A DNA stretch of 64,000 bases. Origin: Alloascoidea hylecoeti (lineage: Eukaryota). The stretch lies in assembly GCA_001600815.1 (NCBI GenBank), contig BCKZ01000006.1:1088137-1152136 (forward strand), written 5' to 3'. Under the pieces are notes generated by a model that saw only the letters and a list, made by a program, of their open reading frames with translations, did no database searches and was not told the origin of the DNA. The position numbers and the translations under genes are program-made. Of this stretch, positions 6,439 to 63,198 are shown piece by piece (positions within the stretch are counted from its first letter, which is position 1; each line of letters starts with the position of its first letter).

Positions 6439-7740
6439 ATGGCCTTACACAAAAATCTTGAGAAGACAATCGATTTAGTTTCTTCTCTCCCTGATGAAAT
6501 ATCTGGAATAATCTTCTTAGATTTGTCAATAACAACATTACTTAATTGTAGAAGAGTATCTAAATCATGGAAACAAATAGTTGAATATGATCATATATGG
6601 AAACCAAAGTTTTTACATCAAAAATGGAAATACTACAATGAACAAAAACTGATTCATGGTATCAGTTATATAGAGAACGTTATATTTTAGAATCAAATTG
6701 GAAAAATGGTGAATTTACAGAACATAAATTAAGTGGTCATTCTACTGAGACATTTTGTGTTAAATTCTTTAAAAACTGGATTTTAACTGGTTCAAAAGGT
6801 TGTACAATAAGAATTTGGGATTATGAAACTTTTAAATGTTTAAAAATATTAGGTAAACCAGATATTGAGATTTTAAAACGATTAGGTGCATCAAATATTC
6901 AGACTTTAAGTGAAAATTTACCACCAACAGAAATATTGAAATTAACAAAAGATATTAATATAAAATTTCATTTGGGTACAGTTAGTTTTCTGTATGGATA
7001 TTAATGATAAATATTTGGTTTCTGGTTCACATGAAGGTTCTTGTATAATTTGGAAATTACCAGATTTTAAACCAATACATCGATTTTTGATACCACCAAT
7101 AGGAGAAGATAAAATAACGTTTATAAATACTGTCATTCTATACAATGATTATATTGTATATTCTAAATTTAATTCTATTGGGGTTTGGAAACCAAGCATT
7201 GATAATTTAGAACATCAACTACATCATAATTTACGACACTATATAGAAGATGGTTGCATTATTGATATTTGCATTCATAATGGTATTCTATATGTTGGAG
7301 ACTATTACTATGCAACTGTAGGTGCCTGGAATATTGAAAGTGGTGAAAAGATTCAAGAATTTAAATATAAATATTTAGGATCCATGACGATATATGATCA
7401 AAACTTATTTGTTAGTGAGTACGACAAACTGATAGCTTTGGATTTACAAACAAATAAAACAAACGTTTTATCATGTGAAGAATTCTATACAGGAGTAACT
7501 CGATTATTAATAGTCAATGATAAAATCATTTGTGGTAACGATTGTATTAAGATTTGGAATTTAAATGATCAAAAATTATTTAAAGAATTTAAAATTTTAG
7601 GTCATGAAATATTAGATTTATCTCCTATTTTTACAATTCGTGCTGATTCGAAAAGACTAGCTGCTTTAACTATTGATGGTGATGTTGTTATTTATGATTT
7701 TACCGAAAAATTAAGGAAAAAATATTTAAAACATTTATAA
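6439..7740 (+). pseudogene. F-box/WD40 protein, copy A, two frameshifts (~6645 and 6980-6987)
   Basis: F-box LPDEISGIIF..L...LLNCRRVSKSWK. Middle frame reads SWYQLYRERYILESNWKNG..GHS..LTGSKGCTIRIWD. Third frame reads YLVSGSHEGSCIIWK. The second frameshift is a tandem AGTT duplication. Confidence 0.8.
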
Positions 7741-12677: not shown

Positions 12678-15600
12678 TTAAACTGGTTTACCACCAATCC
12701 ATTCACTCCATCTTTTAACTTCCTTTGGTACTTCTTTACCAATATTAATTTTTTCATTTTTTTCATCGCGTTCAATTTTTTCGTTTAATTTTTGTTTTAA
12801 AGTTTCTGCAAATAATCTAGCAGTATTTGACTCATTAAATAAAGGAATTGCAAAATCAATTGCATTTCTTCTCATTATATAATCAGGATTATTTAAATTT
12901 TCAGCTCTTGATTTAGCTAAATTAAAAACACAAGAAACATCATGTTTTTGAAATAATTCTCTTAATTCTCTTTTATCTTTTGGAAATTCTAATACCAAAA
13001 TTTCAGAAGAATTTGAAATATAATTTGTTAAATAATCTTTAACTTCTTGTGTTGCAACTAAAGTTTTAAAACCTAAATTATCAGAGATTTGAGCAATTTC
13101 ACCAAGGATTGGATTTGTAACATCACCACCATATAAAATTGAACTTGGAGGTAATGGCATATGAAAATTCATTGTTGATTGAATACCAAGCCAATAAGCT
13201 TCAATTAAATCTTTACCAAAACATGCAATTTCACCAGTTGATGCCATTTCAACACCTAAAAATGGATCAGCACCTGCTAATCTTGTAAAAGAAAATTGTG
13301 GTAATTTTGTAGCAACATAATTAAATTTTTTATCCATTGGATTAACAGCAACAGGTGGTTGATTTAATAAAGCTTTTGCAGCAACATCAATAAAATTAAT
13401 ACCTAAAACTTTTGAAACAAAAGGGAAAGATCTTGAAGCACGAATATTACATTCAATTACTTTTAAATCAGCAAAATCAGGATTTCCATTAACATCATTA
13501 TGAATAATTTGCATATTAAAAGGACCTGTAATATTCCAAGCTTTTGCAACTTTATCAGTAATTTCTTTTAATCTATTCATTATAATTGGAGATAAATTTT
13601 GTGGAGGTAAAACTAAAGTTGCATCACCAGAATGAATACCAGCATTTTCAACATGTTCAGATACAGCATGAACTAAAACATTACCATCATGAGCAACAGC
13701 ATCAATATCAATTTCTTGAGCACCTTGTATAAATTTTGAAATAACAACTGGATGATCAGCAGAAACTTTTGAAGCATTATTTAATTTTAATTCTAATTCA
13801 GATTCATCATTAATAACAGACATTGCAGCACCAGATAAAACATAAGAAGGTCTAACTAATACAGGGAAACCAACTTGATTTGCAAAATTTCTTGCATCAT
13901 TAACAGAAGTTAATTCTTTCCAAGCAGGTTGATCAATACCAATTGAATCTAAAATTGAAGAAAATTTATGACGATCTTCAGCTTTATCAATATCTCTTGG
14001 ATCAGTACCTAAAACTTTAGCACCAGAATCTTGTAATTTTAAAGCAATATTTTGAGGTAATTGACCACCAACAGAAACAACAACACCTTGAGAATTTTCT
14101 AATTCATAAATATCTAAAACTCTTTCAAAACTTAATTCTTCAAAATATAATCTATCAACTTCATCAAAATCAGTTGAAACAGTTTCTGGATTATAATTAA
14201 TCATAATAGTTTTTTTACCATTTTCACGTAAAGATCTTGCAGTTGAAACAGCACACCAATCAAATTCAACACTTGAACCAATTCTATAAACACCTGAACC
14301 TAAAACCATTGTACCATTTTCATTAAATATAACATCATTTTCAGTTGCATTATAAGTTGTATATAAATAATTTGTATCAGCAGGAAATTCAGCAGCTAAA
14401 GTATCAATTTTTTTAACAAATGGTATAATACCAAAAGATTTCCTACGTGATCTAACTTCTAATTCAGTTGATCCAACTAATTTTGAAATTTGTAAATCTG
14501 AGAATCCTAATTTTTTTGATCTTAATAAAACATCATTATTTAATGCATATAAAGAACCTAATTTTTCTAATTCTCTTTGCATATTAACAATATTTTCTAA
14601 TTTATATAAAAACCATTTATCAATTTTTGATAAATTATGAATTTTATCAACTGAATAATTTTCAAATAATAATGCTTGACCAACTGCTAACCATCTTCTA
14701 TCTGTTGGATTTGATAATTCATAATCTAAATCTTTAAAATAATCACCTTGAAAACCAATAAATGATGGATCAACTTGTCTAATTGCTTTTTGAAAAGATT
14801 CTTCAAATGTACGACCAATTGCCATTACTTCACCTACAGATTTCATTGATGAACCAATATCTCTATTAACATGTTGAAATTTAGATAAATCCCATCTTGG
14901 TATTTTTGTAACGATATAATCTAAACTTGGTTCAAAATTTGCAGAAGTAGTTTTTGTAACAGGATTTGGTAATTCAGGTAATGTATGGCCTAAAGCAATT
15001 TTAGCAGCAGTATAAGCTAAAGGATAACCAGTTGCTTTTGAAGCTAAAGCAGAAGATCTTGATAATCTTGCATTTACTTCAATAACTCTATAATCTAAAC
15101 CATCAGGTTGTAAAGCATATTGAACATTACATTCACCAACAACTCCTAAATGACGAATAATTTTAATAGCAGCAGATCTTAACATATGATATTCATCATC
15201 AGATAAAGTTTGAGAAGGAGCAACAACAATTGAATCACCAGTATGAATACCTAAAGGATCAAAATTTTCCATATTACAAACAGTAATACAATTATTTAAA
15301 CGATCACGAACAACTTCATATTCAACTTCTTTCCAACCTTTTAAAGATTTTTCAACTAAAATTTGTGGAGCTAATGATAAAGATTGTGAAGCTAATTGTT
15401 TTAATTCATCAGGATTTGAAGCAAAACCAGAACCTAAACCACCAAGCGCATAAGCAGATCTAACAATAATTGGATAACCAACTTTTTCAGCAGCATTTAA
15501 AGCATCATCTAAATTATCAACAGCAATTGATTCAGCAATTGGAATATTAATTTCTTTTAAAGCATTAGAAAATAAATCACGATCTTCAGAAGTTTCTAAA

Positions 15601-16211
15601 GTTTTTATAGGAGTACCTAAAACTTTAATACCATATCTTTCAAATATACCCATTTTATCTAATTGAACACCAACATTTAAACCAGTTTGTCCACCAAAAG
15701 TTAATAATATACCATCAGGTTTTTCACGTTCAATAATATAAATTAAATATTCAGGAGTAACAGGTAAATAATAAACTTCATCAGCTAAAGAATGAGAAGT
15801 TTGATTTGTTGCAATATTTGGATTAACTAAAATTGCAATTTTATTTGCTTCTTTTAATGCTTTAATTGCTTGAGAACCAGAATAATCAAATTCACCTGCT
15901 TGACCTATAGATAAACCACCAGAACCAATAACTAAGACTTTTGAAACATCAACTAATTCAGGTTTATTTGATAATATACCTGCACCAGCATATTTTGAAG
16001 CTTCTGAAATTGTTGAATTATAACGATTAAATAAATTTTTTAAACCAATTGAATTTAAACCAATTTTATTTTGAAATTTAAATGAAGAATTAATTATACT
16101 TTTTGAACAATTAAAATTAAAACTTCCAATAATAGATTTCGTAGTATTACTAAATTGCCTTTTAATAAGATGACTACCCACCAGATTGGAAAAGCCAATG
16201 GGAGGTCTCAT
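12678..16211 (-). CDS. CPA2: Arginine-specific carbamoyl-phosphate synthetase large subunit with a probable mitochondrial presequence
   Basis: VLVIGSGGLSIGQAGEFDYSGSQA, EVNARLSRSSALASKATGYPLAY and IECNIRASRSFPF; no GATase, DHO or ATCase domains. Likely start is MRPPIGF at 16211; the ORF-track start at 16370 runs through promoter sequence. Confidence 0.95.
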   Translation of the reverse strand: MRPPIGFSNLVGSHLIKRQFSNTTKSIIGSFNFNCSKSIINSSFKFQNKIGLNSIGLKNLFNRYNSTISEASKYAGAGILSNKPELVDVSKVLVIGSGGLSIGQAGEFDYSGSQAIKALKEANKIAILVNPNIATNQTSHSLADEVYYLPVTPEYLIYIIEREKPDGILLTFGGQTGLNVGVQLDKMGIFERYGIKVLGTPIKTLETSEDRDLFSNALKEINIPIAESIAVDNLDDALNAAEKVGYPIIVRSAYALGGLGSGFASNPDELKQLASQSLSLAPQILVEKSLKGWKEVEYEVVRDRLNNCITVCNMENFDPLGIHTGDSIVVAPSQTLSDDEYHMLRSAAIKIIRHLGVVGECNVQYALQPDGLDYRVIEVNARLSRSSALASKATGYPLAYTAAKIALGHTLPELPNPVTKTTSANFEPSLDYIVTKIPRWDLSKFQHVNRDIGSSMKSVGEVMAIGRTFEESFQKAIRQVDPSFIGFQGDYFKDLDYELSNPTDRRWLAVGQALLFENYSVDKIHNLSKIDKWFLYKLENIVNMQRELEKLGSLYALNNDVLLRSKKLGFSDLQISKLVGSTELEVRSRRKSFGIIPFVKKIDTLAAEFPADTNYLYTTYNATENDVIFNENGTMVLGSGVYRIGSSVEFDWCAVSTARSLRENGKKTIMINYNPETVSTDFDEVDRLYFEELSFERVLDIYELENSQGVVVSVGGQLPQNIALKLQDSGAKVLGTDPRDIDKAEDRHKFSSILDSIGIDQPAWKELTSVNDARNFANQVGFPVLVRPSYVLSGAAMSVINDESELELKLNNASKVSADHPVVISKFIQGAQEIDIDAVAHDGNVLVHAVSEHVENAGIHSGDATLVLPPQNLSPIIMNRLKEITDKVAKAWNITGPFNMQIIHNDVNGNPDFADLKVIECNIRASRSFPFVSKVLGINFIDVAAKALLNQPPVAVNPMDKKFNYVATKLPQFSFTRLAGADPFLGVEMASTGEIACFGKDLIEAYWLGIQSTMNFHMPLPPSSILYGGDVTNPILGEIAQISDNLGFKTLVATQEVKDYLTNYISNSSEILVLEFPKDKRELRELFQKHDVSCVFNLAKSRAENLNNPDYIMRRNAIDFAIPLFNESNTARLFAETLKQKLNEKIERDEKNEKINIGKEVPKEVKRWSEWIGGKPV

Positions 16212-16305
16212 TTTTTCAAAACTTTGATAATTTCTGGACGTTGAAGAAAGAAGGAAAAAAAAAAAGTGAAATTTACAATTGTGGAATTTATATGTCAGAT
16301 GCAGG

Positions 16306-16337
16306 TGAGTCACTGATTTTAATTTATGAGTCACGTG
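16306..16337. promoter_or_regulatory. Two Gcn4/CPC-1 sites (TGAGTCA) plus an overlapping CACGTG E-box upstream of CPA2
   Basis: TGAGTCA at 16306-16312 and 16327-16333, CACGTG at 16332-16337, all 95-125 bp upstream of the ATG. Confidence 0.75.
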
Positions 16338-16732
16338 GAGATGAGTTCCATTTTTCATCCACAAATCCAAAACTTAAAAATCTTTTTTTTTAATCTAATA
16401 ATATGTATGAACATTATTAATATTGATGATTGATTGATTTGATTGATTGCTATTTAATGAAAAAAAGTCTTTAATTAAAATGTTTAACAAGTTTGCTGAA
16501 TTGCTTTGAAAACAATAATAGTGAGCCAATATTATTCAATTTTAATATTAATATAAATAATTATATAAATAATTAATATTCTATTTAATTTTGGCATTAT
16601 CATGTGCCATATATTCCATTAAATGAACTTATTTAGAATTTACTGTAATTAATGTATGTAAAAAGTAATATATTATAAATGTAATGGAAAAAAAAAAAAA
16701 AAAGGCATATTCTAAATTTTATAAATTATTGT

Positions 16733-37991: not shown

Positions 37992-39311
37992 TTATTTTTC
38001 AACACCAACACGTTCCTTTGATAAAATATCAACCAATAAACTATTTGGTCTATTATCAACAGAATCTCTAACACCTAATTTTCCTTGTTTTTCTTGATAT
38101 TCTTTAACATGACCAAAATATTTATCAAATAAAAATGATGAATCTAATGGACCACCTTTTGCTTCTGGATGAAATTGAGTTGAAAAAATTGGTCTTGTTT
38201 TATGAATCATACCTTCATTACTTTGGTCATTTAAATTAACAAAATATTCTTGAAATTCAGGATTAAGAGTTGTTGGATCAACAGCATATCCATGATTTTG
38301 TGAAGTAATATGACATTGACCAGTTGTAACGTCTAATGCAGGTATATTATGAGCTCTATTACCATATTTCATTTTAATTGTTTTTGCACCTGAAGCAAGG
38401 GCTAATAATTGATGACCTAAACAAATACCAAAAATTGGACCAGAATAAGTTTCCATTACTTTTTTTAAATGATAAACTGTTGATGAACAATGTGTTGGAT
38501 CACCAGGTCCATTTGAAATGAAAATACCATCAAAATGATGAGCAATTTTATGAATTGGATAATCATATGGGAAAACTGTAATAGATGCTCCTCTACTAAC
38601 CAAAGATCTTAAAATGTTTTCTTTAACACCACAATCAATTACTGCAATGTGATATTTACCAGTTGATGGAACATGAAATGGAGCTTTAGTGGAAACCTTG
38701 TGTACTAAATTGATTGAGCCAGGATCAGAAAATGCTTCATCTTCATCAGCATCATATTCTTCTCCAACAGTAATTCTTGCTAAAGATGAACCTCTTTCTC
38801 TTAAATAAGTGACGATAGATCTAGTATCAACTCCGGTGACTCCGGCAATTCCTTCTCTTTGACACCAATTTGCTAAAGATTCAACAGCAGTCCAATGACT
38901 ATATTTCATTGCAACATCAGCAACAACAACACCAATACATTGAACATGAGGACTTTCAAAGTATTTATACAAATTAAATTGATCTTTAACATTTGAAGGA
39001 ACTCCATAGTTTCCAATTAAAGGTTGTGTAAATACTAAAATTTGACCTTTATATGAAGGATCAGTCATAGATTCTGGATAACCAACTAATGATGTTGTGA
39101 AAACAGCTTCACCCGATACATTTAAATTGGCACCAAAAGAACGACCATGGAAAACAGGGCCATCCCTGATTGTTAGTGTAGCACGATCAAGAGCAGTAAT
39201 AGGTAAAGAATTTGTATCTGTAACAGATGCAAATGAACGTAATGAATTTTTTAAGACATTACTGGTATAACCAGTAGTGCATTTTGATAATAAATTAAAA
39301 GATTTTAACAT
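37992..39311 (-). CDS. CPA1: Arginine-specific carbamoyl-phosphate synthetase small (glutaminase) subunit with a probable mitochondrial presequence
   Basis: [44 protein letters not shown] and QFHPE. Confidence 0.95.
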
Positions 39312-39350
39312 TGCTAATATTGTAGTTTAATGCGAGATTTGAAATTTAAT

Positions 39351-39485
39351 TTAGAGGGAACCTGTTTTCCAAATTTGATCTAAATTTTTCATATATTAGT
39401 TTCCATAAAAACAATAAGATTAAATTGAGGGTGAGAACTTACCAGAAATATAATCAAGTCGTGTAAACAATAAGGTAAAGGGCAT
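39351..39485 (-). CDS. AAP: Arginine attenuator peptide uORF, MPFTLLFTRLDYISDQIWKTGSL; exons 39485-39443, 39379-39351
   Basis: A 63-nt intron (GTAAGT...ACTAAT...TAG) joins DYIS-D-QIWK, matching the AAP core DY(I/L)SDH(I/L)W(K/R). The stop lies 39 nt before the CPA1 ATG. Confidence 0.92.
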
Positions 39486-39569
39486 AAAAATAAGAAACAA
39501 TTATTTCGTATGTTTACCAAAAGTTTTATAGAAATGGAAAAAATCGTTTTTATGTATGAAATAGATTAA

Positions 39570-39587
39570 GAGTCATTGGACGGGTAA
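39570..39587. promoter_or_regulatory. Gcn4-like GAGTCAT and Reb1-like CGGGTAA upstream of the CPA1 uORF
   Basis: GAGTCAT at 39570-39576 and CGGGTAA at 39581-39587. Confidence 0.6.
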
Positions 39588-40649
39588 CCTTTTCCACAGC
39601 AGACTGAAAAATACGCAATCTTCATCTTCTCATTGAATTGAGATGTATAATTATAACTGTAAAGCTTTAAATTTATTGTTTTAATTCCTTCTTCTCTGAA
39701 ATTAATATTCAAATGAAAAATACAAAATACTTCGATTGATGAATACTTTCAAGAAATGTGTTATTTAGCGGTATATTTATCATTATAATGACAGCTAACC
39801 TTAATCTACTATTGGTATAATTATTCATATAAACCGGGAGATTTTGCCTTTCTTATCCCATTAGTTATATTTCATTTGGCTGGGCAATAATCATCTTAAA
39901 CCTCGACTATTAGTATAATAGAAGAATTGTCAAATATTTCAAGTTGATTTGCTATTAGTTAACTTTAAAATCATCAGACCTAGAACTTCTTCTTCAGGAC
40001 ATATTCCAGCTTGCTTGTACAATCTTTAAAAAATAAATTACCACACGCTCTTGTGATTCTTATAATATAAGAGCATTTTAAATAGGCAATAGCCAATTTT
40101 ATTAAAAAAAAAATGCTTTAGTTTAAATGCCGCTTATGATGGGTATGTGCTAATGTGCTAACTGTCGCTGCCTCACTGAAGCATATCATTTATTACAACT
40201 CTAGGTATATGCAAATCACGATTGTCAGTTATTGAAATCCTCTCAACCTTTTTTTTTTGTACTGGCCATGGATCTACAACCTCTTAATTGAGTTGTTTGC
40301 AATTTTTGTTCGTTAAAGTTAATAAGGCAAAATACATGTTGCGATTGTGAGGTCTTAAGCTTATAATGAAACAAGTGAAGGAGAAGTTCTTAACTTAAGC
40401 AAAAAGTATACTACCTGGACATCCATAAGAACAGAAATATTACTACCAATTGTGAGGAGTTCTTCAAAAATATATTGTCATCAAAGTTAATGATTTATTT
40501 TATTAATTGTCCATGTACAGTACATAGCTATAGACCACATTTTTTGAATCCGAATTCATCAATCCCGACTAATAAAATATATTTCAGTACGAAAACAATA
40601 TAACATTGTAGTTATATATTATAACTATCAAATAAACAAAGAACCATTA

Positions 40650-41540
40650 CATTAAGAAATACAGAATGAGGCTTCAACAAATGTGAATAATTCGTCAGTA
40701 TTCAATCTCCCTTTACATTGATTTCCATATAAGCCATGCATTCTTCCTTTTGAGCTGAGTTTTCTCCTCTGGTGGAAAGTCGTGTTTCGTACCAAATGGC
40801 TCATTTTTTTCTGCTATAAGGATCACCAACCACTCTGTATCATAGTACAATTTAGTACGACCTCCATTCCAAATCTTAGTCCATACCATGACACTCACAG
40901 AAACAGACTTCCTTTATATTAAATATTTCTATTCAACGGGCTGGCCTGAATATCATAGATAGGATCAGGATCATGTTACCATCCAAGATTTACCATTAAA
41001 TACAACATCATCCTAACTTCATAAGACCACTTCGATCTATTTTTAAACCATATATATATCTGCTCTTTTAGTTCTTTTAATTCACCTTTTATGCCTCAAA
41101 TGTTCCATATCCATGTTTTTAAAAAGTATCCTTAGGGGAAGCTTTTACAACCCTCAGGATTTGATCCATCGCTTTATCGGTAGGTTCTGTAAGCTTTTTT
41201 TAAATTTGAGGAGGTGTTATACTAGAAGATTTGTTAGCATATTTCTTCACAGTCAATTGCCAGTTGAAGTTTTATTATGGCCAATTTTCAACAAATGATA
41301 TATTAGTCATACTCTCTCGAGTTACATATTTCAATCAGCTTAGTTTTTTGAAATTAGTGTTGTCTGAATTTCTTAACTTAATTCTGGAATTTATTCGATG
41401 TTTATCTGGGTTATTTTATTTTGGAGTGGTGTCAGGAAAAGAGATGGGTACATTTTTACATTACACCGAATACTGGTCATAATGCAGAGGAATATATTAC
41501 GGATTAAATGGCGAAATTGATGTAGTTTTATGACTGCTTT
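40650..41540 (-). mobile_element. Second decayed Tc1/IS630-like transposase remnant
   Basis: Fragments KKLTE...ILRVVKASPK.T, WFKNRSKWS..DDVVFN and KSVSVSVMVWTKIWNGGRTKL (cf. GSVMVWGxI..G...L). The minus-strand 5' edge begins CAGT near 41536. Confidence 0.55.
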
Positions 41541-43246
41541 GGTTATATGTTATCTACTCCTTTTATTTCACCGTATTTCACACTATAGATGAAAAGTAGG
41601 AATCACCAAACTTAAATCAAGAGGTAAAATTTTCTTAATAAAACCAATTAGTGGTTAATTGTCGTCTCTACTCTGTTTGCAATTGAATTTTGAGTTAATA
41701 TCAAATATATCTTATAATTATGACTAGGTGTATCGATGGTATGGTTTAATTATTGACACTTCTAACCACAATTATAAAGGGAATAAGTAGTAAAGATTAC
41801 TATGTTATAGTACTAGTCTAAGTTATAACTGATGATTGATATCCTTAATATTTTATTGCGATTAAGAACCTTAGAAGTGCAATAGAACAACTACTAGTGT
41901 TTTATTTTCTATATATAATTGATCTTAATTATATTGTAAATGATATTTACTAAATCAATTAATAATTAAGCGGCAGTTTCTTATCAAAATTTCCTATCGA
42001 TTGTGATAACTTCATAATAAATTGCAAATATTAAGGTATATAAAGAAGTTTTTTCAAGAACTTTGTGCTTTTGAATACATCTTTTCCTGATATAGGGAGG
42101 ATTATATGTAAGATTCAGGTTCCATTAAATATTGTGGGTTTGTTTATATAATCGACACATAGCTAGCTTAAGGTTTAGAAATAAACTCTAATGAGTAAGT
42201 GTTTCTGGGTATTGTCCTAAAATAGATAAAAGAGATTTAATAAACACGTCAATACCCAATATGTCTAAAATGCTAAACTTGATTCGTAAACCAGCTGTAA
42301 ATATATTGAGACACTATTGTATTATATTGTAACAAGAAGAATTAGACCACATGTACTAAAGACATTTGGTCTATTTTAGGACATGGTAGCGGTATCTAGG
42401 TATTATTTCGGTATTATTTTGGTGCTAAATATAAATATATCCTTAATGAATGGTTGATCAACTTAAGAGACTCAGTTGAGAACTAGGTTTTACAATTACA
42501 ATACATATAAACTTTTTCAATTATATTCGATACAATACAATATAATAATAGCATTATTTAGAAAGCAGAAATCAATTAATATTAAATGTAGCATTAAATC
42601 AATAATTCCAGAAGCAATACATGTTATGATGCCTATAAGTTACAGCATTCATATATTTTACAACCACACATTTGAGTTAATGTGTTCCAAAGGAATTTTT
42701 ATGTCTTCTTGTTAAACCCAATTGGTTTTATGTTGCTGCTCAAATTTAATTTTCTAACTAAGAGCAGCTTGAAAATTTTCGAAGCCGCAACGGGACACGT
42801 TCTACTTTGCTTGAAGACTGGTAAGTTATAGAATTGGTGACCTGGGTCTAGGGCATATTCTTAAGCTTGCTAGTACAACATAAATAATTATTTTCCACTA
42901 ACAAGAAAAATAGCTAATCCGTTTCAAGACATATAAGTTACAAACCAATCCCTTTATTAACTGATTTCTAAATACAAATGCATCACTATTTCCAAAATAT
43001 CAAATAGATGAAAATACTACTATAGAAGTCCTAGATTATGAGTGGAGGAATACATGTACGAAAATTTGTAATTAACATTCATAATAAATACACCAAGTGA
43101 ATAAAGAAATTTGTTTTCATTAATTAATTAAATAGCATACATAACAAATGGTAACCATAATTTCACAAAGTAGTTACGTGAAAATAAAACAATTAGAATC
43201 ATTATAGAATAATTAGCCGCATATTTCTTGGAGAATAGAAACCAAT

Positions 43247-43717
43247 TTATACATCCTCAGCCCATTTATTTTCCTCTATGATTGCAGCTTCCTCTGCTGG
43301 AGTAAAATCATTATGAACATTAAAAGTTTCTCGGAGTTGTTCTGCAGTTTTTCCCTTCATCATATTAGCTACAGTTTTGCAACCGGCATCCAAGAGTTTC
43401 TTTATGTTTAAATAGTTGGCTGCCAAAATGATTTCAAATAACATTTTTTGATCAAGTTGAAAAAACTTTTGATCCCATTCACCTACTTCGGCCAATTTCT
43501 TATCCCTTTCATCCTCAACAGGGGGTTTGTCATCCTGGTGATGATCACACCATTCAATAACCTTCTTTAAAATATTGGACTTGACACCTCCAACAGGAAT
43601 AATTTCATTGTCACCTAAGTCTTCAATAAAGTTTTTGATTAAAACAGAACATTCAGCAATCTTTCGTTCAATTTTGAACTCTTCACCATCGGCGGATATT
43701 AAAGTTATATTTGGCAT
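43247..43717 (-). CDS. SKP1: Skp1-family SCF adaptor, intronless and divergent (probable paralog)
   Basis: [41 protein letters not shown] and NDFTP.EE motifs. Confidence 0.93.
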
Positions 43718-44749
43718 TGTTGTTAAAAAGAATAAAAAAATGATTTTATTATAAAGGGGTGTAATCAGAAAGAAAGAAACTGGAAGTGAAATATTTGCTG
43801 TTTATATGAGTATACGTAATGGACGGTCCATAAAGCTTAATTTGCTATGCATTTAATTATTTATATGTATTTTAAGTGCCTTCCTAATCTGGTAGTATAT
43901 TATGCATAAATCAGGACTATACACTTGCGTTTTCTCTTTTTTGATAGCACTCCAAGGAACAATTCTGAAAAATCATGAAAGTGGAGTACTTGTGATTTGT
44001 TAAAAACAACTTCCGAGTGAGAAGAGCCGAAGTAACTAGGGATGTGGTTTAAAGATTGCTTGGTGTTGTCTCAGGATGTTTGTGATGCTTATTGTATTCA
44101 GTTAACGATTGATCGGTCGGTGGTTACAGGATCCGTGAAAAGTATACTTGAAGACAGTTCCATCGGGCTTTCGAAGCTTAAAATATTTATAAAATAAGGA
44201 ATTCCGGGGATTCATGTTTTACGGTTTGAACTGGAACTCGGAAAGGTAGTCACAATTGTTAATAGAGTGATTGGGGATCCTAATACTATATCCATGCGTT
44301 GTAAAGCTGCCTTTTATGATTTTAAGAGTGCTATATACCACATCACACCACAAGCATACGACAACAGTACCAAACAACCATAACATATTTATATCTGAAA
44401 AATACTCACATGAATAAATATCTTACAAAATTTAAGAAAATATACTCATATATTTGTGATATAATATGAATAATTTCTTTCATTAAAAACGATCTGAATT
44501 CTACTATCAGCGCATTAACTGGAAACAAATATCAATAAATGATTGATAATGGTAATCCCAAGTACAATTTGAAAAGGAGTTGAAATGAGGTCAAATGATA
44601 AATATATTGAAAATATATTATAAGGAACCTACATAAAACAAATTGGTTTAAATAAGTTTAGGAGCTCTCTAAACCCTTTCAACTACAATATTTTCTTCAA
44701 ACTTCTTTATAAGTTTTCTTGATTATTTTACTTACCCTTCCAATCCACA

Positions 44750-44893
44750 ATGCCATACCTACAATTAACATCCTCCGATAGTGAACTGTTCCAAATCGAA
44801 CAAAATATTTCCGAACGTTCCGTTCTACTCAATAATATGATTGAAGACTTGGGTGATGAAGCTCGAAATATTCTTCGGGAAATACGCGCTTAA
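44750..44893 (+). pseudogene. Truncated SKP1 5' fragment (47 codons; not in the ORF track)
   Basis: MPYLQLTSSDSELFQIEQNISERSVLLNNMIEDLGDEA aligns with the Skp1 N-terminus, then runs into unrelated sequence and TAA. Confidence 0.85.
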
Positions 44894-46499
44894 TTATTTA
44901 TATTTTATTTAGATACAATCACTCTTGTGAAATTGCGAAGTCGACTACCATTTGCTATGTATACCATTTAATGCAAAGATGTTATGATGATGGAATTCTG
45001 AATCTAATTTGCAATATTTACAAATGTAGTCAAAATTAATCTTAGTATTTATAAAAGTGAATACAGCTACTTATATAGTAGAAATAACTATATAGCTATA
45101 CAACATAACAAAAGAGGGTTGGTAAACCATTGTTCATGTTTGTATTATCAAAGAGAGCTAGTTACAAATGTACTCCTAATATTCTGTATAACAAAAGAGA
45201 GATATTTAAGTACAACATTAATTAAACATCAATTAAGCCAAGACCGTCGGCATATATTGTATAAGAACGATTTTGGGCTCTTCAATTGGAATATTTCTGA
45301 AACAAATCGACGAGTACTACCCTATCTATTCAATAGGAAGGAATCTAAATCAAGACAGTCACAGAATTCGTATCCGGAAAAGTCTGTGACAGCCAGGCTG
45401 TAATTGAGATTATGAGCTCGAGCCTTTCACATGTACATGATGTATATGTGAAGAAATGCCTAATGTTTATGTCTCTTTCAAAATGTTAGGTCCTCATGGA
45501 GTAGGATAACATTGATGATCTGCTTGACCACATGACTAGTAGAGTGACAGCCGTTTAAAAAGGTTTAGGGTAAGAACATCAAATATTAAATTTAAAATAA
45601 CATTTCATATAAGTCTTACACTAATATAATTTCTACAATTTATAAAACGTTATGCACTATCCTAGGAACCTTTTAAAGAATTTTAGAGTATTCGATGGCT
45701 GGTTATAATATATTTGCAGTGGAATCCAAAAAGGATGATTGATTTCACCCACTCTATCATATGCATACCATCAATAGGAAGTTATAACAAATTATATTTT
45801 AAGCTACCCTATACTTAAATAAGCAGAATTTTCTTCCGGTTTGTTTCTTTATAATTACAGCTCTCCAAAAATATTATTTGTTTATTCTTTTTAACTATAA
45901 TGTCATATTAGGGCCCACCCTACCCGTCAACAACCCAAAAAACCCCACATTGATGGCTGAGAAAAAGAATTTTGAATCCTAATAATCGAACGTTTCTGTT
46001 TCCAATCGTTCTAGGTGCCAATTTTCTGGAATCATGTCCTTAATATTGTATGCCAAGGTTTTACAACCAATATCTAATAGATCAGTAAGATGTTTGATAT
46101 AAGGTACAGCTTTATCCTAGAGGAAGTAGCTTCATTGATTTTAAATTTAATTGATTAAAATAGTTGATGGTTATAATATAACTATAAAATGATGTTCTCC
46201 ATTAGTTTACATTGTTTTTGTTGAGTAATTAAAATGTAGTTTAAAATATAATTAATGGGCCTTGATGAATTCAGATCAAAGAAATAAAAAAAAAATTTCA
46301 TATGAATATATCTTCAATTCAGATCATGAACCTTCAATTTATCTGAAACCTAAGCCTGTTATGTAAATTATGAAACTTTCTGTAGTTTTTATACCAAATA
46401 CGCAAGACCGTGAGAGCACTATAACTAATATTGACTTCCATTGCAATTGTAAGCATGAGGAGTCATATGCATATATCACCCTTTTTGCCGTCTACGCAC

Positions 46500-47560
46500 T
46501 ATTAATAATTTCAATTCCATGCTTTGACTAAACAAGTCATAAACTGTGATGATAAGATAATGTTGAGAAACTCCTCTGAATTGGCAATAATAATTCTTTA
46601 TCTTGTGGGCATTAAGGTAATTAAGTATAAGCTGGTTAAATTAATTTAAGAAATATTGCTTCAAGTGTTTCATTATTATTATATTTCGGGAACAAAAAGT
46701 GCAAACAAACTAACCAAGAGGATGTAAATCCCAGTACATCATCATATTGAGATGATTTCATAACTTGACAATCTAAACTTGTAAAACTTTTGTGATGTAT
46801 GATATACTTTGCAACAGTGACACAACAACCGTTAGCAACTATGTTTTTGGAGGTCAATGCCTGGTTTTCTCACATATAATATAGTCCTAATAAGTCAGCT
46901 TTATGGGCACAGAATTGCTGTTCAGAGTGGGATAGATTGTTTGAGTAACATTTCCTGAAAGCAGCCCACTCATTACTGTAGCACCAATTGGGAGGCCTTC
47001 TTGTTAAATAACACCTTAACCGATTCATATACCTCCGAGTATATACCCCGTGTCATCAATGTTTCAGGTGTTCCTTTTATTATAGTGAAATCTGTCGAAT
47101 CATCACTCTGACCAGCTGTGCGCTGTTTGAAGCAAAAATGTACATATCCAATGAGTTTGCACGTTTGTATTTTAGCCCAGGATATTATTTATTAAAGGCC
47201 CCTTATCGATATAATACCCTTTCGCGAATTCCTTAACACTTGTGCAATTGAGTGGTTTGCTGAAAGTACGTACACATCAACTACGTGAAAAAAAGCGCTT
47301 TATCTGGGGTAGAATCAAACTCTGTCATTTCCTGAATGCTCTGTCTTGACTGTTAGAACAGTTAACTTTTACTTAGACACACCTCTATCTATTTGCCCTT
47401 TAGTGTACTTTCGCTCACTCCATAATCTTTTGCGACGCGTGTAAATTTTTCTCAGGAAATTTCCGAGCGTTTAGAGCAACTTTTTCTAAATATTGAGCCT
47501 TTCTTAGTATCTGGAAGATTTTTGTTTAATAATATTGGCTATTTTGGGGTAAGGTTGGGT
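46500..47560 (-). mobile_element. Decayed pogo/Fot1-like transposase remnant
   Basis: VAKDYGVSESTL (psq-type HTH, ~47400-47436), P..TSVKEFA (CENP-B HTH), T*NIDDTGY (cf. WNxDETG) and SNEW...C (cf. NREWVTxIEC), all collinear. Confidence 0.7.
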
Positions 47561-47823
47561 ATATTTTTCATGTTTTTCGGAACCTACCGTTGCTAAGAAA
47601 CATTATTATTACGTATATAGTTCTACCAACCAGAAGCCGATTCCATCATCTAGCTTTTAATGAAAAAGGGAAAGATAAGGATAAAGTAAAAATTTACATA
47701 CTCTATATTTATCAATAATAACGGAGTGCCTGGTGGAGACGTCAACAAGAAATGTTTGATGTCGTTTTGAGAATACGATGATTCCACTTACTTTCGGTCA
47801 CACTGTTAGGTCTTTCGCCATCT

Positions 47824-47955
47824 TTAGGCCGAATAATTACCGGCATGACCCGTTAAAGCGCAGGGATATGGAACAACTGGGTTCCAGTACGGGCCCAAAG
47901 TTAGTTAACGTGATAGACTATAATTAGTAATCAGCATAGCCGAAATTATGTATTC
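47824..47955 (+). repeat. Diverged direct repeat of ~57287-57420
   Basis: Shared accggcat...ccgtta....gcagggatatggaa, ttagtta.cg and taattag.aat. Confidence 0.65.
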
Positions 47956-48349
47956 ACGTGCTGTGTGTCAGGTGCTGCAAGTTATTAGTCCAATCAGACC
48001 GGGTAACAATTGCGTAATTCTGGTAATTACCCGACACATATAAGCATTGATCTCGCACCTTTCAATCTTCTTCCTTCTTCTTTTTCCTTACTCACTTAAC
48101 AACTTTTATATAAATTTTTCTTCTTAGTTAAAGAAACGAATTCAGCAGATTCTTGATTATTTTTGAATAAGGATTTTTAAGAGATATATTATTTATTGTT
48201 TTAATACTAGCTGTTTTTTATACTCTTTATTGTATTATATATTATCAATAAATTTACATTTGAAAAAAAAAAGAATATTTTTAAGATATAATATTTTTAT
48301 TATCATTATTAAGATTATTATCTATAACTACTGGTAAAGTAAACGAACA

Positions 48350-49990
48350 ATGTCCTCATGTGTTTACTATAGATTCATGTCTCAAAAACAGCCTTCAACG
48401 GTTAAGTTTGATGGCACGGGAATTACTGTTTTCGATATTAAACGAGAGATTATAAATGCTAATAAGTTAACGTCTGGAACTGATTTCGATCTAGTCCTTG
48501 AAAACCCAGATACCAAAGAAAAATATGAAGATGACACTCAAGTTTTACAAAGGTCGACAAGTGTATTGGTGAGAAGAATGCCATTAAAATCTAGAGGTAA
48601 AGGTAAAGGTGTTCAACGATATGTTAATGGAACTGGACCAAAAGTGGTGAGGAAACAAGCTCCTGTTCCATCTTCAACAATGAATAATTCTAATAATGCT
48701 GCTATTCCGGTATCAGGAACAGAAGAGGATAAAATCAAGGCAATGCTTCAAGTACAATCAGATCAATGGAAGGAAACTCAACAACATATGGCGTCTGCCA
48801 CCCCTATATATAATAAATCATCATCCCACGCTGATGGTCCCCCACCTCCAGGTTATGTTTGTTATAGATGTGGTGCGAAAGATCATTGGATTAAAAATTG
48901 TCCTACAAATGATGATCCAAATTGGGAGGGTAAACGAGTGAAGAGAACGACTGGTATTCCTAAGACTTTCTTAAAAACAGTAGCAAATCCTGCTGAAGGA
49001 GACACTGATCAGGGTAATTATATGATTACAGAAGATGGACAGTATGTTGTTGCTGTAGCGGATGATAAATCTTGGAAGAGTCATCAACAGAAATCAAGAG
49101 CAGCTGAGAAAGCTCGTACTTCCGACGCAAACACTGACCCTACACTAGTATGTCCATTAACCCATAAATTATTCATACATCCTGTTAAAACGCCTTGTTG
49201 TGGTAAAACTTATGAAGATGATGCTATCCAGCAGGCTTTAATGGATGATGATTTTAAATGTCCAAATTGTGGGAAAGATGAAGTTTTGTTAGAACAGTTA
49301 ATAAAAGATAGTGATATAGAAGCTAAACTTTTAAAACTTAAAGAAGATCAAACATCTAATTTAGAAAATAAGTCAAGTAAAAGAAAACGGGAAGATGAGG
49401 AAACTCCCGATGTAAAAAAATTAAAAATAGAATCAGAATCAGAATCAGAATCTTTAAGCTCAGTTTCTAACTCAAATAAAAATTCAAGATCAAATTCACC
49501 AATAAAAACAAATACAACAGATATAAGTGAGAATTCTAGTGAATCAGCTGTTAAAGAAAATATAAATGAAAAAGTGGTTACTAATAATATACCTTCGACC
49601 AATAATAATATGAATGGAAATGATTGGCCGTTCCCACCACCAATGATGAACCAAGGAGGGTTACCAATGATGCCAATGTTTCCAATGGGACCAATGCAAC
49701 CACCAATGGGTATGAGCATCCCAATGAATATGAATATGGGTATGGGAATGATGAATATGCCAATGCAACCACCAATGGGTATGAATATGAATATGAATAT
49801 GCCATTTCCAATGATGGATCCAATGATGAATATGAACATGCCAATGAATGGAATGCCGCCACTTATGAACATGAACAATATGAACAATATGAATAATAAT
49901 ATGAATAATAATGGTCCATATCTAAGAAATGCTAATAATAAAAAGAAATATAATCAACGTGTAAGGGCTCCTGATTTCCATGTTTTGTAA
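48350..49990 (+). CDS. MPE1: Cleavage/polyadenylation factor Mpe1 (DWNN, Zn knuckle, RING/U-box)
   Basis: MSSCVYYRF.SQK, FDGTGITVFDIKREII, PPPGYVCYRCGAKDHWIKNCPT, KRTTGIPK and TPCC. Confidence 0.95.
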   Translation: MSSCVYYRFMSQKQPSTVKFDGTGITVFDIKREIINANKLTSGTDFDLVLENPDTKEKYEDDTQVLQRSTSVLVRRMPLKSRGKGKGVQRYVNGTGPKVVRKQAPVPSSTMNNSNNAAIPVSGTEEDKIKAMLQVQSDQWKETQQHMASATPIYNKSSSHADGPPPPGYVCYRCGAKDHWIKNCPTNDDPNWEGKRVKRTTGIPKTFLKTVANPAEGDTDQGNYMITEDGQYVVAVADDKSWKSHQQKSRAAEKARTSDANTDPTLVCPLTHKLFIHPVKTPCCGKTYEDDAIQQALMDDDFKCPNCGKDEVLLEQLIKDSDIEAKLLKLKEDQTSNLENKSSKRKREDEETPDVKKLKIESESESESLSSVSNSNKNSRSNSPIKTNTTDISENSSESAVKENINEKVVTNNIPSTNNNMNGNDWPFPPPMMNQGGLPMMPMFPMGPMQPPMGMSIPMNMNMGMGMMNMPMQPPMGMNMNMNMPFPMMDPMMNMNMPMNGMPPLMNMNNMNNMNNNMNNNGPYLRNANNKKKYNQRVRAPDFHVL

Positions 49991-59306: not shown

Positions 59307-61674
59307 TTAACCATGTAACAATTTAGAAGATAGCGCTTCAAGATCCGCCAATGTTTCTGGCTCATCGACCTCAATAATTTTAGTACTTTTATCTTTGTTA
59401 TGTCGGTGTTTCTTAGACTTCTTAGTTGGTCTTTCACGATCACTTTCGGATTGTGATTCAGATGTTGATATCGAAGCACTTGATTGATCAAAATTGTTAT
59501 ATATTTCTTCATCAGAAATATCCCCTCCTAGTACCGCCACAGGACCATCGGTACCATCATTTCCCTCAAGTTTGCGAAGTTTTCGTTCAGCTTCCTTTCG
59601 CTTTCTTTTCTTTGCTAATCTTTTATCCTTTTGAAGATCTTTATCATCAACATTAGGGGTTATCATCTGTCCAGTTTCTCCTTCAATAAATTTAGCTTGT
59701 TGTTCAGTTGCAGTACCATCAGCTTTAAAGTCTACCTCACCTTTAAGTTCATAGAGAAAGTGGGGAACTCCATCATCATCAAATATAAGTTTTGTAGGAT
59801 TTCCGTTCTGTTGCAAAGAAGCTTTACGAGAAACGGCACGTTTCATTGCCCTATTTGATGTAGGTAATTTATGTAAATCTGAATCAGCATCATCTTTTAA
59901 ATTATGATCAATTCTTTTAAAAGTCATGAAATCATCAGCATCATCACTTTCATTATCACCATCATTTTTAACAAGGTTTCGGTAATGTGCCGACAATTCA
60001 TCTTGATTATTTCCAGTGAGTAATCTTTGATATTTATCCTTTGGCTGATCATCTTTTTTCTTCTGATTACCATCTTCATCACCTCTTGCAATTGTAAGAA
60101 GTTTTCTTGAAGTATTTTTTAATTCTTTACTTCTATTGCCATTTCCTGAAGGTTTTATAACTATTGGTTCTCCACTTAATCCTAAACTTTCAGCATATTC
60201 TTTTAAAGGAATATAATCAACATTAAAAATAGATTTATCATGCTGAGTTAAAATTGATTTATAATATAAAAGCCCTTCGTGTTAAATTTTTATAATCTGG
60301 AGCTGACTGATCATCACCCTTTTTAGCATATAGATTGTGTAATTCATTTTTAATTGATTTTTTTTTGAGCTTCAGGGATTTTTAAATTATTAACTTCAAT
60401 TTTTTTCATTTGAAGTCTTGCTAACATTCCTTCTTCTTCGGATTTTGTTAATAATAATAAAATTTGACCTTTTCTACCAAACCTCGCAGTTATACCACCT
60501 CCATGAACAAAAGTATCAACATCTTCTGGGGCATCAACTTGTATTACCCAATCAACACTAGGAAAATCCAAACCTCTAGCAACAATATCAGTTGCTAATA
60601 AACAAGCATGTTCAGCCCTTGAAAACTTTGAAGTTCTTTCGATTCTTCCAGCTTGTTTCATTTTTACACTTATAGATATTAATGATATACCAGGCTGTAA
60701 AGTTTTAAAAGTTTCAAAGACAAATCTGACCTGTTTTGAAGTTGAAAAAAATACAATCATTTTGGATTTTGTATGAGTTCTTATAAAACAGTATAAAATA
60801 TTCAATTTATCTTCAACATTAACAATTGAATGACTTTGTTGTGAAGATTTTGGAGTCACTGAAGCATCTTCAGGAGTTGAAGTTATAAACAATGGATTGA
60901 CCAAGTTTAATTGTGCTAAATCACGAATTGGTTTTTGTTGAGTTGCTGAAAACAAAAATGTTTGCCTATCAATTGGTAAACTTTCAATAATATTATCCAT
61001 AGTTTGCTTAAAATAATATTATCATTTTTAAATTTGTTGTATCAAAATCATGAGATTCATAAATATGTTGTAATAATCGACCTGGTGTTCATATAATTAT
61101 ATTTAATTTCCCAATTCTTTCTTTTTCATCATGATAACTTTTCCCACCAGTTAACAAACCAACAGAAAATGAATGTAATTTACCAATGTTTTTTAAAACA
61201 TTAAAAATTTGTATTGCAAGCTCTCTAGTTGGTGATATAACTAAAGCACCCAAGCCATCTAGTTGTGTCCATTTATTACGATATAGAACTTCTAACAATG
61301 GTATTAAAAATGCCAAAGTTTTACCTGGTCCTGTTCGTGCGCTGCTCCAAGAATATCATGTCCTTTAAGTGATTTGATAATTGAACGTCTTTGAATATCA
61401 GTAGTTTTTAGAAAATGAGCTTTTTTAAGCCTTGTAATGTTTCTTTTGATAAAGGAAGATCTGAAAATTGACCTATTGGTGTACTCTCATCATTCTTTAT
61501 TATTTAAAAAGTACATATTAGATTGGGAGTATGAATAGTTTTAAACCAATAAGCTTACAAATTCTTAAATTTTTGTCTCAAGGTCTTCGATGATATCTTC
61601 TTCATTCCTTCTTTTTATCTGTCTTTCAGATAACTTTGAGGTTGTTTTACTCTTCTGTTTTCGTGATTTTCCAT
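59307..61674 (-). pseudogene. DBP4: DBP4/HCA4 DEAD-box rRNA helicase pseudogene
   Basis: Dbp4 motifs [49 protein letters not shown] and EPETLADLEAL are present. Defects: frameshift right after the ATG, in-frame stops, TGPGKT in place of TGSGKT, a deleted DEAD motif, and HGGGITAR in place of HRVGRTAR. The intron 61558-61495 is retained. Confidence 0.9.
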
Positions 61675-62199: not shown

Positions 62200-63198
62200 G
62201 TTGGTTATAATATTGCCATCTTTATTTATTAGAGTGAAGGAGATGCATAAGGTTAATCTTGAATCAGCTCTATTCTTTCGTTTTGTTTTTAAGAATTTAT
62301 ATATCTTTGAATATATGCATCTTTCTTTAGTATAAATAATATCATCATGGCCGCAAATGACTCTTGAACCATAATTTCTACCTTCTATGCGGATACTGAA
62401 TTGAATATCAAGCTCTATTGTTGATCTTCGATTTCTGGACTTGATTACCAAACCCCAATACAATGACAATTGGAGAACAAAATATTATCATTATATAGAA
62501 ACACCCCGTCTATCAATCTATCTTCATCGCCATCTTCCACCCACTATCTTCATCACCATCTAGATCTACTGGCATCATCAAACGTTTTATTGGTTCGAAA
62601 TCTGGTAACTTCCAGATTATACATGAATGATCCGATCCAATGAACCAGATATCAAATATTTATCATTGACCTCCAAACAAACAACTTCATCTATATGAGT
62701 TCTGATTTCCTGTTAATTTATAAATTCCAATATCTCCATGTCTGTTGAGTCACCTAAATCAATATATATCTCAATATCTGGGTCTCCTAATACTTTTAAA
62801 CATTGATAAGTTTTACTGTCCCAGATCCTAATAGTAGAATCCTGTGAACCCGTTAAGGTCCAGCTTTTATAGAATTTGACACAATTTATTTCGTCTGAGT
62901 GACCAGTTAATCGATTCTGTGAAAACTTTCCATTCTTCCAATTATTATCTAAACGGTATCGCTGTTTATATAATTCAAACCACGAATGGGGGTTGGGATC
63001 GTTATATTTCCATGCCTCTTTATGGAATTTGGATCTCCATATATTCTCGTTAGCTATCATATGCCTCCAAGATTTGGAGGCTCGTCCACAATTAAGTAAA
63101 GTTTTGAGACACAGATCTGAGAATACAGTAATGGCTAATTCATGAGGGAGAGTGGAGACATCACCAATTGTCCCCTCAAGATTTGGCTGTAAGGCAAT
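62200..63198 (-). pseudogene. F-box/WD40 protein, copy B
   Basis: Collinear with copy A: (I)ALQPNLEGTI..STLPHEL..LLNCGRASKSWR..SWFELYKQRYRLDNNWKNG..GHS..LTGSQDSTIRIWD. ATT sits at the start-codon position (63198), there is an in-frame TAA at 62713, and further frameshifts follow. Confidence 0.85.

Follow-up and report, generated by a model that had tools for sequence, protein, structure and literature searches.

Extra Skp1 adaptors combined with an extra cullin are described in Caenorhabditis elegans, in which CUL-6, SKR-3, SKR-4 or SKR-5, FBXA-158 and RCS-1 constitute a ligase of the Intracellular Pathogen Response (10.1101/586834, available in part). That system resembles the gene set described here in its additional Skp1s and cullin and in its expanded, fast-evolving F-box repertoire, but ours belongs to a budding yeast, has F-box/WD40 receptors rather than FBXA, and counts five Skp1s versus 22. 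The plant ASK and OSK families are similar in having a few slowly evolving 'master' Skp1s beside fast paralogs, arranged in tandem or dispersed, with many pseudogenes; in the available part of the same source, 22 of 30 divergent rice OSKs bound none of the tested F-boxes (PMC3576659), which is a caution for P0001, the divergent Skp1 examined here. The KSS F-box antidotes of toxin-antidote elements in Caenorhabditis tropicalis also form a rapidly evolving F-box family with a diversifying substrate face, although KSS-1 uses the canonical SKR-1 (PMC12680543, available in part). A single SKP1 is stated for fungi or yeast in the accessible portions of two sources (PMC3576659; PMC12680543), and no report of a multiplied Skp1/Cul1 core in a fungus was found in the open-licence PMC and bioRxiv literature.

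The window analysed here is a stretch of 64,000 nucleotides (G000:C6:1088137-1152136) of a genome labelled G000, which comprises 24.8 Mb in 136 contigs. The best named relatives of a housekeeping protein in the window are yeast proteins (77-81%), and a one-gene tree places it on an isolated branch among budding yeasts. P0001 (Table 1) has an open frame without intron, and its product exceeds the cut-offs of both Skp1 domains, the N-terminal Skp1_POZ domain (PF03931, 79.7 bits) and the C-terminal dimerisation domain (PF01466, 87.5 bits). It matches solved Skp1 chains at the 60% level (1nex_A, E=1.2e-55), and it shares with canonical fungal Skp1 / SconC (S. cerevisiae Skp1, PDB 1nex) the same two domains, the full length and a hydrophobic core on the F-box side. 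The four divergent motifs for which the gene had first been singled out are all present, namely IPVGGVKS (40-47), DQKML (89-93), KTAEQLR (123-129) and the last eleven residues (146-156). In contrast to canonical fungal Skp1, P0001 is at most 63% identical to any protein in the collection searched, and none of 18 metagenome loci shows more than 65% identity to it, the best long match being 61%. In a set of 30 named fungal Skp1s, picked from 119 other matches, 96 columns show agreement of 90% or more; P0001 is off-consensus at 22 of these, versus 0-5 for the references (leave-one-out) and 6-7 for the canonical copies of G000. The mean identity to the 30 references is 71% for the canonical copies A and B on contig C14 and 59% for P0001. 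On these comparisons, P0001 is not the housekeeping SKP1 of the genome, and the housekeeping copy would be located on C14. From residue 89 onward, all 25 conserved hydrophobic columns are still hydrophobic in P0001 and 21 are identical, so that F-box binding is probably kept.

The initial annotation had described P0001 as an intronless gene sitting alone in a tract of transposable-element remnants, a description that holds only in part. The lack of an intron is real but not distinctive, because the canonical C14 copies, and indeed all Skp1 copies of G000, are intronless too. No other ATG-started open frame of at least 100 aa lies in 39311-48350, but Skp1 remnants occur on both sides of the gene (40734-40811 and, weakly, 45963-46092). 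Dispersed non-coding repeats are also present, but 12 frames of the tract, translated through stops, gave no match to a Pfam transposon family. Since more Skp1 debris is found in the C-terminal helix remnant and, weakly, in the probable further copy of Table 1, the tract is better described, as far as similarity indicates, as a decayed Skp1 cluster amid dispersed non-coding repeats, in which all Skp1 copies other than P0001 are decayed. In the probable further copy, 45810-45906 (+) is homologous to the Skp1 5' flank, weak coding remnants follow at 45963-46028 (+) and 46024-46092 (-) with E values of 0.01-0.3, and the DNA matches a divergent Skp1 paralog with an E value of 4e-8. The 47-codon SKP1 5' fragment noted on the opposite strand is genuine, begins 1,033 bp from the start of P0001 and is closer to the canonical gene, as had been claimed, with 83% DNA identity to C14-B over 146 bp, 5' flank included. 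Its homology stops near codon 41 and its dS to C14-B is about 0.35, indicating a younger copy; by this similarity, the fragment is a descendant of the canonical Skp1 copies. The homology between the 3' flanks of P0001 and copy A ties P0001 to the C14 array, and, together with 5' flank homology among the remnants, it fits a duplication at the DNA level. A processed retrocopy was rejected, the parents being intronless, as was an allele (haplotig), P0001 being only 65% identical to canonical copies that are themselves in tandem on one contig. The two non-coding repeat families are dispersed elsewhere as well, one of ~1.15 kb at 69% (L104:1507-2655, L105:612-1796) and one of ~430 bp at 92-95% (L098:1304-1735), and the former adjoins remnants of Skp1 not only in the window but also on C8 and C32.

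Table 1. Positions of the features discussed; coordinates are those of the window unless a contig or locus is given.
Feature	Position	Strand	Remarks
Intact divergent Skp1 paralog P0001, 156 aa	43247..43717	-	Skp1_POZ + Skp1 dimerisation domain
3' flank of P0001, alignable to 3' flank of canonical copy A (G000:C14:588179-)	43129..43246	-	74% over 600 bp including flank
SKP1 5' pseudogene fragment	44728..44893	+	ORF 44750-44893; homology about 44728-44873
Skp1 C-terminal helix remnant	40734..40811	-	abuts dispersed repeat; tblastn E=1.3e-5
Further decayed Skp1 copy (probable)	45810..46092		flank + weak coding remnants
Piece of old dispersed repeat (~1.15 kb, copies ~69% alike)	40796..41269		more pieces 45393-45732
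Piece of younger dispersed repeat	42211..42367		copies elsewhere (four contigs or places) 92-95% identical
Broken F-box/WD40 family member	6439..7737	+	frameshifted over three frames
Broken, truncated F-box/WD40 family member	62632..63195	-	family match
Cul1/Cdc53 tandem pair	G000:C7:786418-792931		3' part on contig C99
Cul1/Cdc53 dispersed full-length copy	G000:C1:477226-479660 (L077)		
Second F-box family loci	L163, L166, L169, L170, L172-L174, L176, L177, L181-L184, L186-L191		

P0001 is not the sole intact SKP1 of the genome, the alternative against which the initial annotation had weighed its proposal: the genome has four more full-length Skp1 genes, and two of these are canonical. Besides two canonical and three divergent full-length genes, the inventory of G000 includes one truncated copy as well as several pseudogenes. 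The two canonical copies, 97% alike, stand in a tandem array on C14 with one divergent copy and one pseudogene, and C19 carries another divergent full-length gene. The five full-length Skp1s group together with moderate support (82/86), on long branches and with no close yeast outgroup. C19 also encodes a very divergent Skp1-derived form of 143 aa (G000:C19:493061-493492, L006:1456-1887), which is without the last F-box-binding helices and is possibly a decoy or a decaying copy. On C8, a Skp1 5' remnant (L146:2276-2900, G000:C8:130275-130900) precedes a short remnant similar to the window gene at 48350-49990, which we take to be MPE1-like; this suggests that the C8 remnant was copied from the window locus. 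A POZ match on C37 was not counted among the Skp1s and is presumably Elongin C.

The cullin side of the core also appears to be multiplied. Four Cullin_Nedd8 matches were obtained among five candidates in G000, and from their motifs we take one to be Cul3, one Cul4 and two Cul1/Cdc53. Two more 5' halves, in tandem on C7 and both ending at an assembly gap, were found with the N-terminal part of Cul1 as the query. Contig C99 (1.7 kb, L062) has an exact 95-base overlap with both C7 gap edges and contains one ambiguous base, as would be expected if two nearly identical Cul1 3' halves had been collapsed. Cul1/Cdc53 appears to exist in three copies, two of which are split by assembly gaps, the C7 pair not being assembled end to end. 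Identity between the two C7 5' halves is 80% at the DNA level and 78% at the protein level, and this difference of ~20% next to a near-identical 3' part suggests that gene conversion has spared the end that binds Skp1. The open frame of the dispersed C1 copy spans 812 codons, and this copy shares 79% DNA identity with C99; a candidate intron, judged by eye, lies at the position seen in the C7 copies. Ten loci were examined of 22 RING matches, and they include one Rbx1-like and one Apc11-like gene. An expansion of Rbx1 was rejected, because the short RING frames belong to a separate RING-H2 family. These tiny genes (~120 aa; G000:C3:956600-957953, C3:980041-980452 and C11:399050-399443) are related to a larger gene with an N-terminal RING at C15:323923-328220, presumably Asr1-like. 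The RING partner of C. elegans CUL-6 is a non-Rbx protein.

Among the receptors, at least 130 F-box loci of G000 exceed the Pfam cut-off (PF12937; of 173 candidates, 150 were scored and 149 of these matched). For comparison, 20 F-box proteins are given for Cryptococcus neoformans in the available part of PMC9781138. With one member as the query, the F-box/WD40 family yields at least 107 matches (97 scored of 368 candidates), and 32 of the 107 run without a stop across 360 or more of the 432 residues. The protein collection gives 20 matches to the family at 48-64%, beyond which identity falls to 28% or less; of those 20, eight are exact matches to G000 loci and 13 match over a 60-residue stretch, so that the family looks confined to G000. 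Which gene was its parent is uncertain on the comparisons made: filamentous-fungal and Mucoromycota F-box/WD40 proteins score above the Met30-like gene of G000 on the family profile, and Fbw7 ranks above beta-TrCP among solved structures. A second, older F-box family accounts for 20 of 44 long F-box frames examined, with members 14-34% identical and 470-840 aa long. Its C-terminal domain is unrecognised, with no Pfam match beyond the F-box and only generic F-box clusters in the Atlas, and its members are possible partners of the more divergent Skp1s. In addition, L024 and L165 (G000:C13) form a duplicated F-box pair, 60% identical with a dS of 0.65, in the age class of the SCF expansion.

The synonymous distances of these components are similar. 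The dS of P0001 to the canonical copies is 0.79-0.89 (intervals 0.55-1.26 for Skp1 pairs), that between the other two divergent Skp1s is 0.69, and that between the C1 Cul1 and C99 is 0.83, while the F-box/WD40 family has a median of 0.76 with quartiles of 0.67-0.89 (70 of 351 pairs). The small RING genes among themselves and an F-box pair fall at 0.5-0.7; two non-ubiquitin duplicate pairs used as controls show 1.4-1.5, and one more control pair is saturated. These values, with wide intervals and few controls, fit a shared episode near a dS of 0.8 for P0001, the C1 Cul1 and the F-box/WD40 family. The co-expansion of Skp1 with the F-box family that the initial annotation proposed is real, with similar synonymous ages, and a genome-wide count of five full-length Skp1s and apparently three Cul1 copies extends it to the cullin.

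The explanation that we prefer, and which has in our judgement about an even chance of being correct, is that P0001 is an accessory, partly redundant SCF adaptor, a SKP1 duplicate retained from a lineage-specific birth-and-death expansion of the SCF. The canonical SKP1 would have been duplicated and P0001 retained as Skp1, Cul1/Cdc53 and the F-box receptors multiplied, with one Rbx1 found. P0001, presumably expressed, would use its conserved C-terminal helices to grip F-box domains and would link them to one of the Cul1 copies, perhaps preferring the divergent cullin. The loading of many diversifying receptors in this way could spare the essential Skp1 pool, and the targets may be foreign or selfish-element proteins. 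Partial redundancy between P0001 and the other Skp1s is probable, and the F-box/WD40 family would be at most a preferred, not an exclusive, partner. By analogy, the best reading likens the P0001 system to C. elegans SKR-3/4/5 with CUL-6, the yeast set showing a co-expansion of Skp1, cullin and F-box genes and, in its receptors, a positively selected substrate-binding part beside a conserved F-box. A conflict of the toxin-antidote type is a possible reason for the F-box expansion, by analogy with the KSS antidotes. Five Skp1, three Cul1 and more than 100 F-box loci in a budding yeast would add one more independent origin to the expanded SCFs known from nematodes and plants. Yeast assays could then ask whether an arms race or drift drives such receptor families, and whether the receptors are divided among the Skp1 paralogs.

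It is unlikely that P0001, the C1 Cul1 and the F-box/WD40 family form a dedicated, insulated module with co-evolved interfaces and no exchange with the housekeeping SCF. The matching synonymous ages are in its favour, as are non-conservative changes in P0001 at the near-invariant Skp1 positions M30F, P43G, N44G and D104N, which we take to lie on the Skp1-Cul1 contact surface; D104N is common to all three divergent Skp1s. Also in its favour, the LNR motif of the C1 cullin has Ser where Arg stands in all 25 reference cullins (picked from 150 listed). Over its whole N-terminal domain this cullin deviates in 10 of the 42 conserved columns, hardly more than the references do (0-9, n=25), and a prediction of P0001 in complex with that domain (median 0.26, mark 0.34) is evidence neither way. 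Against the module, the conserved Asn is missing from the canonical copies as well (N to V). Moreover, the dedication of P0001 to the F-box/WD40 family, as originally proposed, is not upheld, since the F-box-side hydrophobic core is kept and the family F-box looks canonical, scoring 60.4 bits on PF12937 versus 60.3 for the Met30-like gene. Because this F-box is near the Pfam consensus, the canonical Skp1 should bind it, and the pairing is not assignable from sequence, given three divergent Skp1s and another F-box family of greater age. In the available parts of the sources, SKR-3, -4 and -5 of C. elegans are redundant (10.1101/586834) and canonical Skp1s bind most F-boxes in rice and Arabidopsis (PMC3576659), which further argues against insulation. 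The wider proposal, in which a second, insulated SCF with divergent Skp1 and Cul1, a selected F-box/WD40 repertoire and co-evolved interfaces would serve intracellular recognition of viral, selfish-element or competitor proteins as the yeast equivalent of CUL-6/SKR in nematodes, is doubtful.

Duplication-driven drift, in a genome prone to copying its genes, with P0001 redundant or slowly dying under relaxed selection and the shared age reflecting a burst of duplication rather than a partnership, is improbable. Such drift is reportedly a published model for plant F-box families. It would agree with the presence of several dead copies of Skp1, which often lie next to dispersed repeats, with the 75 of 107 F-box/WD40 family matches that are broken or partial, and with a free-ratio branch model in which dN/dS = 1 was not rejected on the P0001 branch (p = 0.48), although the branch estimate of 5.4 (dS 0.03) is unreliable because the outgroup paralogs are saturated. 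However, the intact frame and conservative substitutions of P0001 are unlikely under neutrality: its pairwise dN/dS is 0.24 (0.13-0.40), and in 3,000 neutral simulations to its divergence a stop arose in 95% and equally conservative changes in 1.6%. P0001 looks selectively retained. The C-terminal domain of the C1 Cul1 is likewise under purifying selection (dN/dS 0.16), which also speaks against drift, as does positive selection on the family receptors, which is concentrated in the WD40 propeller. Codon models were applied to 27 members; two of the 32 intact frames were missed by the motif filter, and three of the remaining 30, without the family C-terminus, were excluded. With gap masking ever stricter, 2dL was 248, 85 and 20 for M2a versus M1a (0-4.7 in 11 null simulations) and 134, 45 and 9.5 for M8 versus M8a. 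The selection is thus significant under each of the three masks, but gene conversion and alignment error can inflate these values, which were obtained with branch lengths rescaled only. At 0.95, the sites that pass in the full set are 30 of 309 in the WD40 part versus 2 of 94 in the F-box and linker (p = 0.009); under the strictest mask the counts are 2 of 116 and 0 of 63, and the enrichment is not significant. In the two clearest repeats, five of six top-face hotspots, assigned by the R1, R1-2, D-1 rule (PMC3419727, available in part), are among the selected sites (K106, F108, A122, T183 and F199).

A cullin-independent role, in which P0001 would keep F-box binding and have lost or weakened Cul1 binding, acting as a decoy, an F-box chaperone or a non-SCF subunit (kinetochore CBF3, RAVE or synaptonemal complex), is also rather improbable. 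Skp1 is said to act outside the SCF in the synaptonemal complex. It does so in RAVE, according to the available part of PMC11648922, and the least conservative changes of P0001 (P43G and N44G, together with R23C and P64K) lie outside the F-box helices, both of which are in line with such a role. Against it, the LAANYL motif is unchanged in P0001, and the duplication of Cul1 at a similar time, with its changes in the C1 copy concentrated in the N-terminal domain, would be left unexplained.

Two other observations concern the window itself. A frameshifted DEAD-box helicase gene at 59307-61486 (-), which we take to be DBP4-like, is apparently a pseudogene. The subunits of the arginine-specific carbamoyl-phosphate synthase are encoded 22 kb apart, at 12678-16358 and 37992-39311, the small subunit being named by its relatives and the other being presumably the large subunit.
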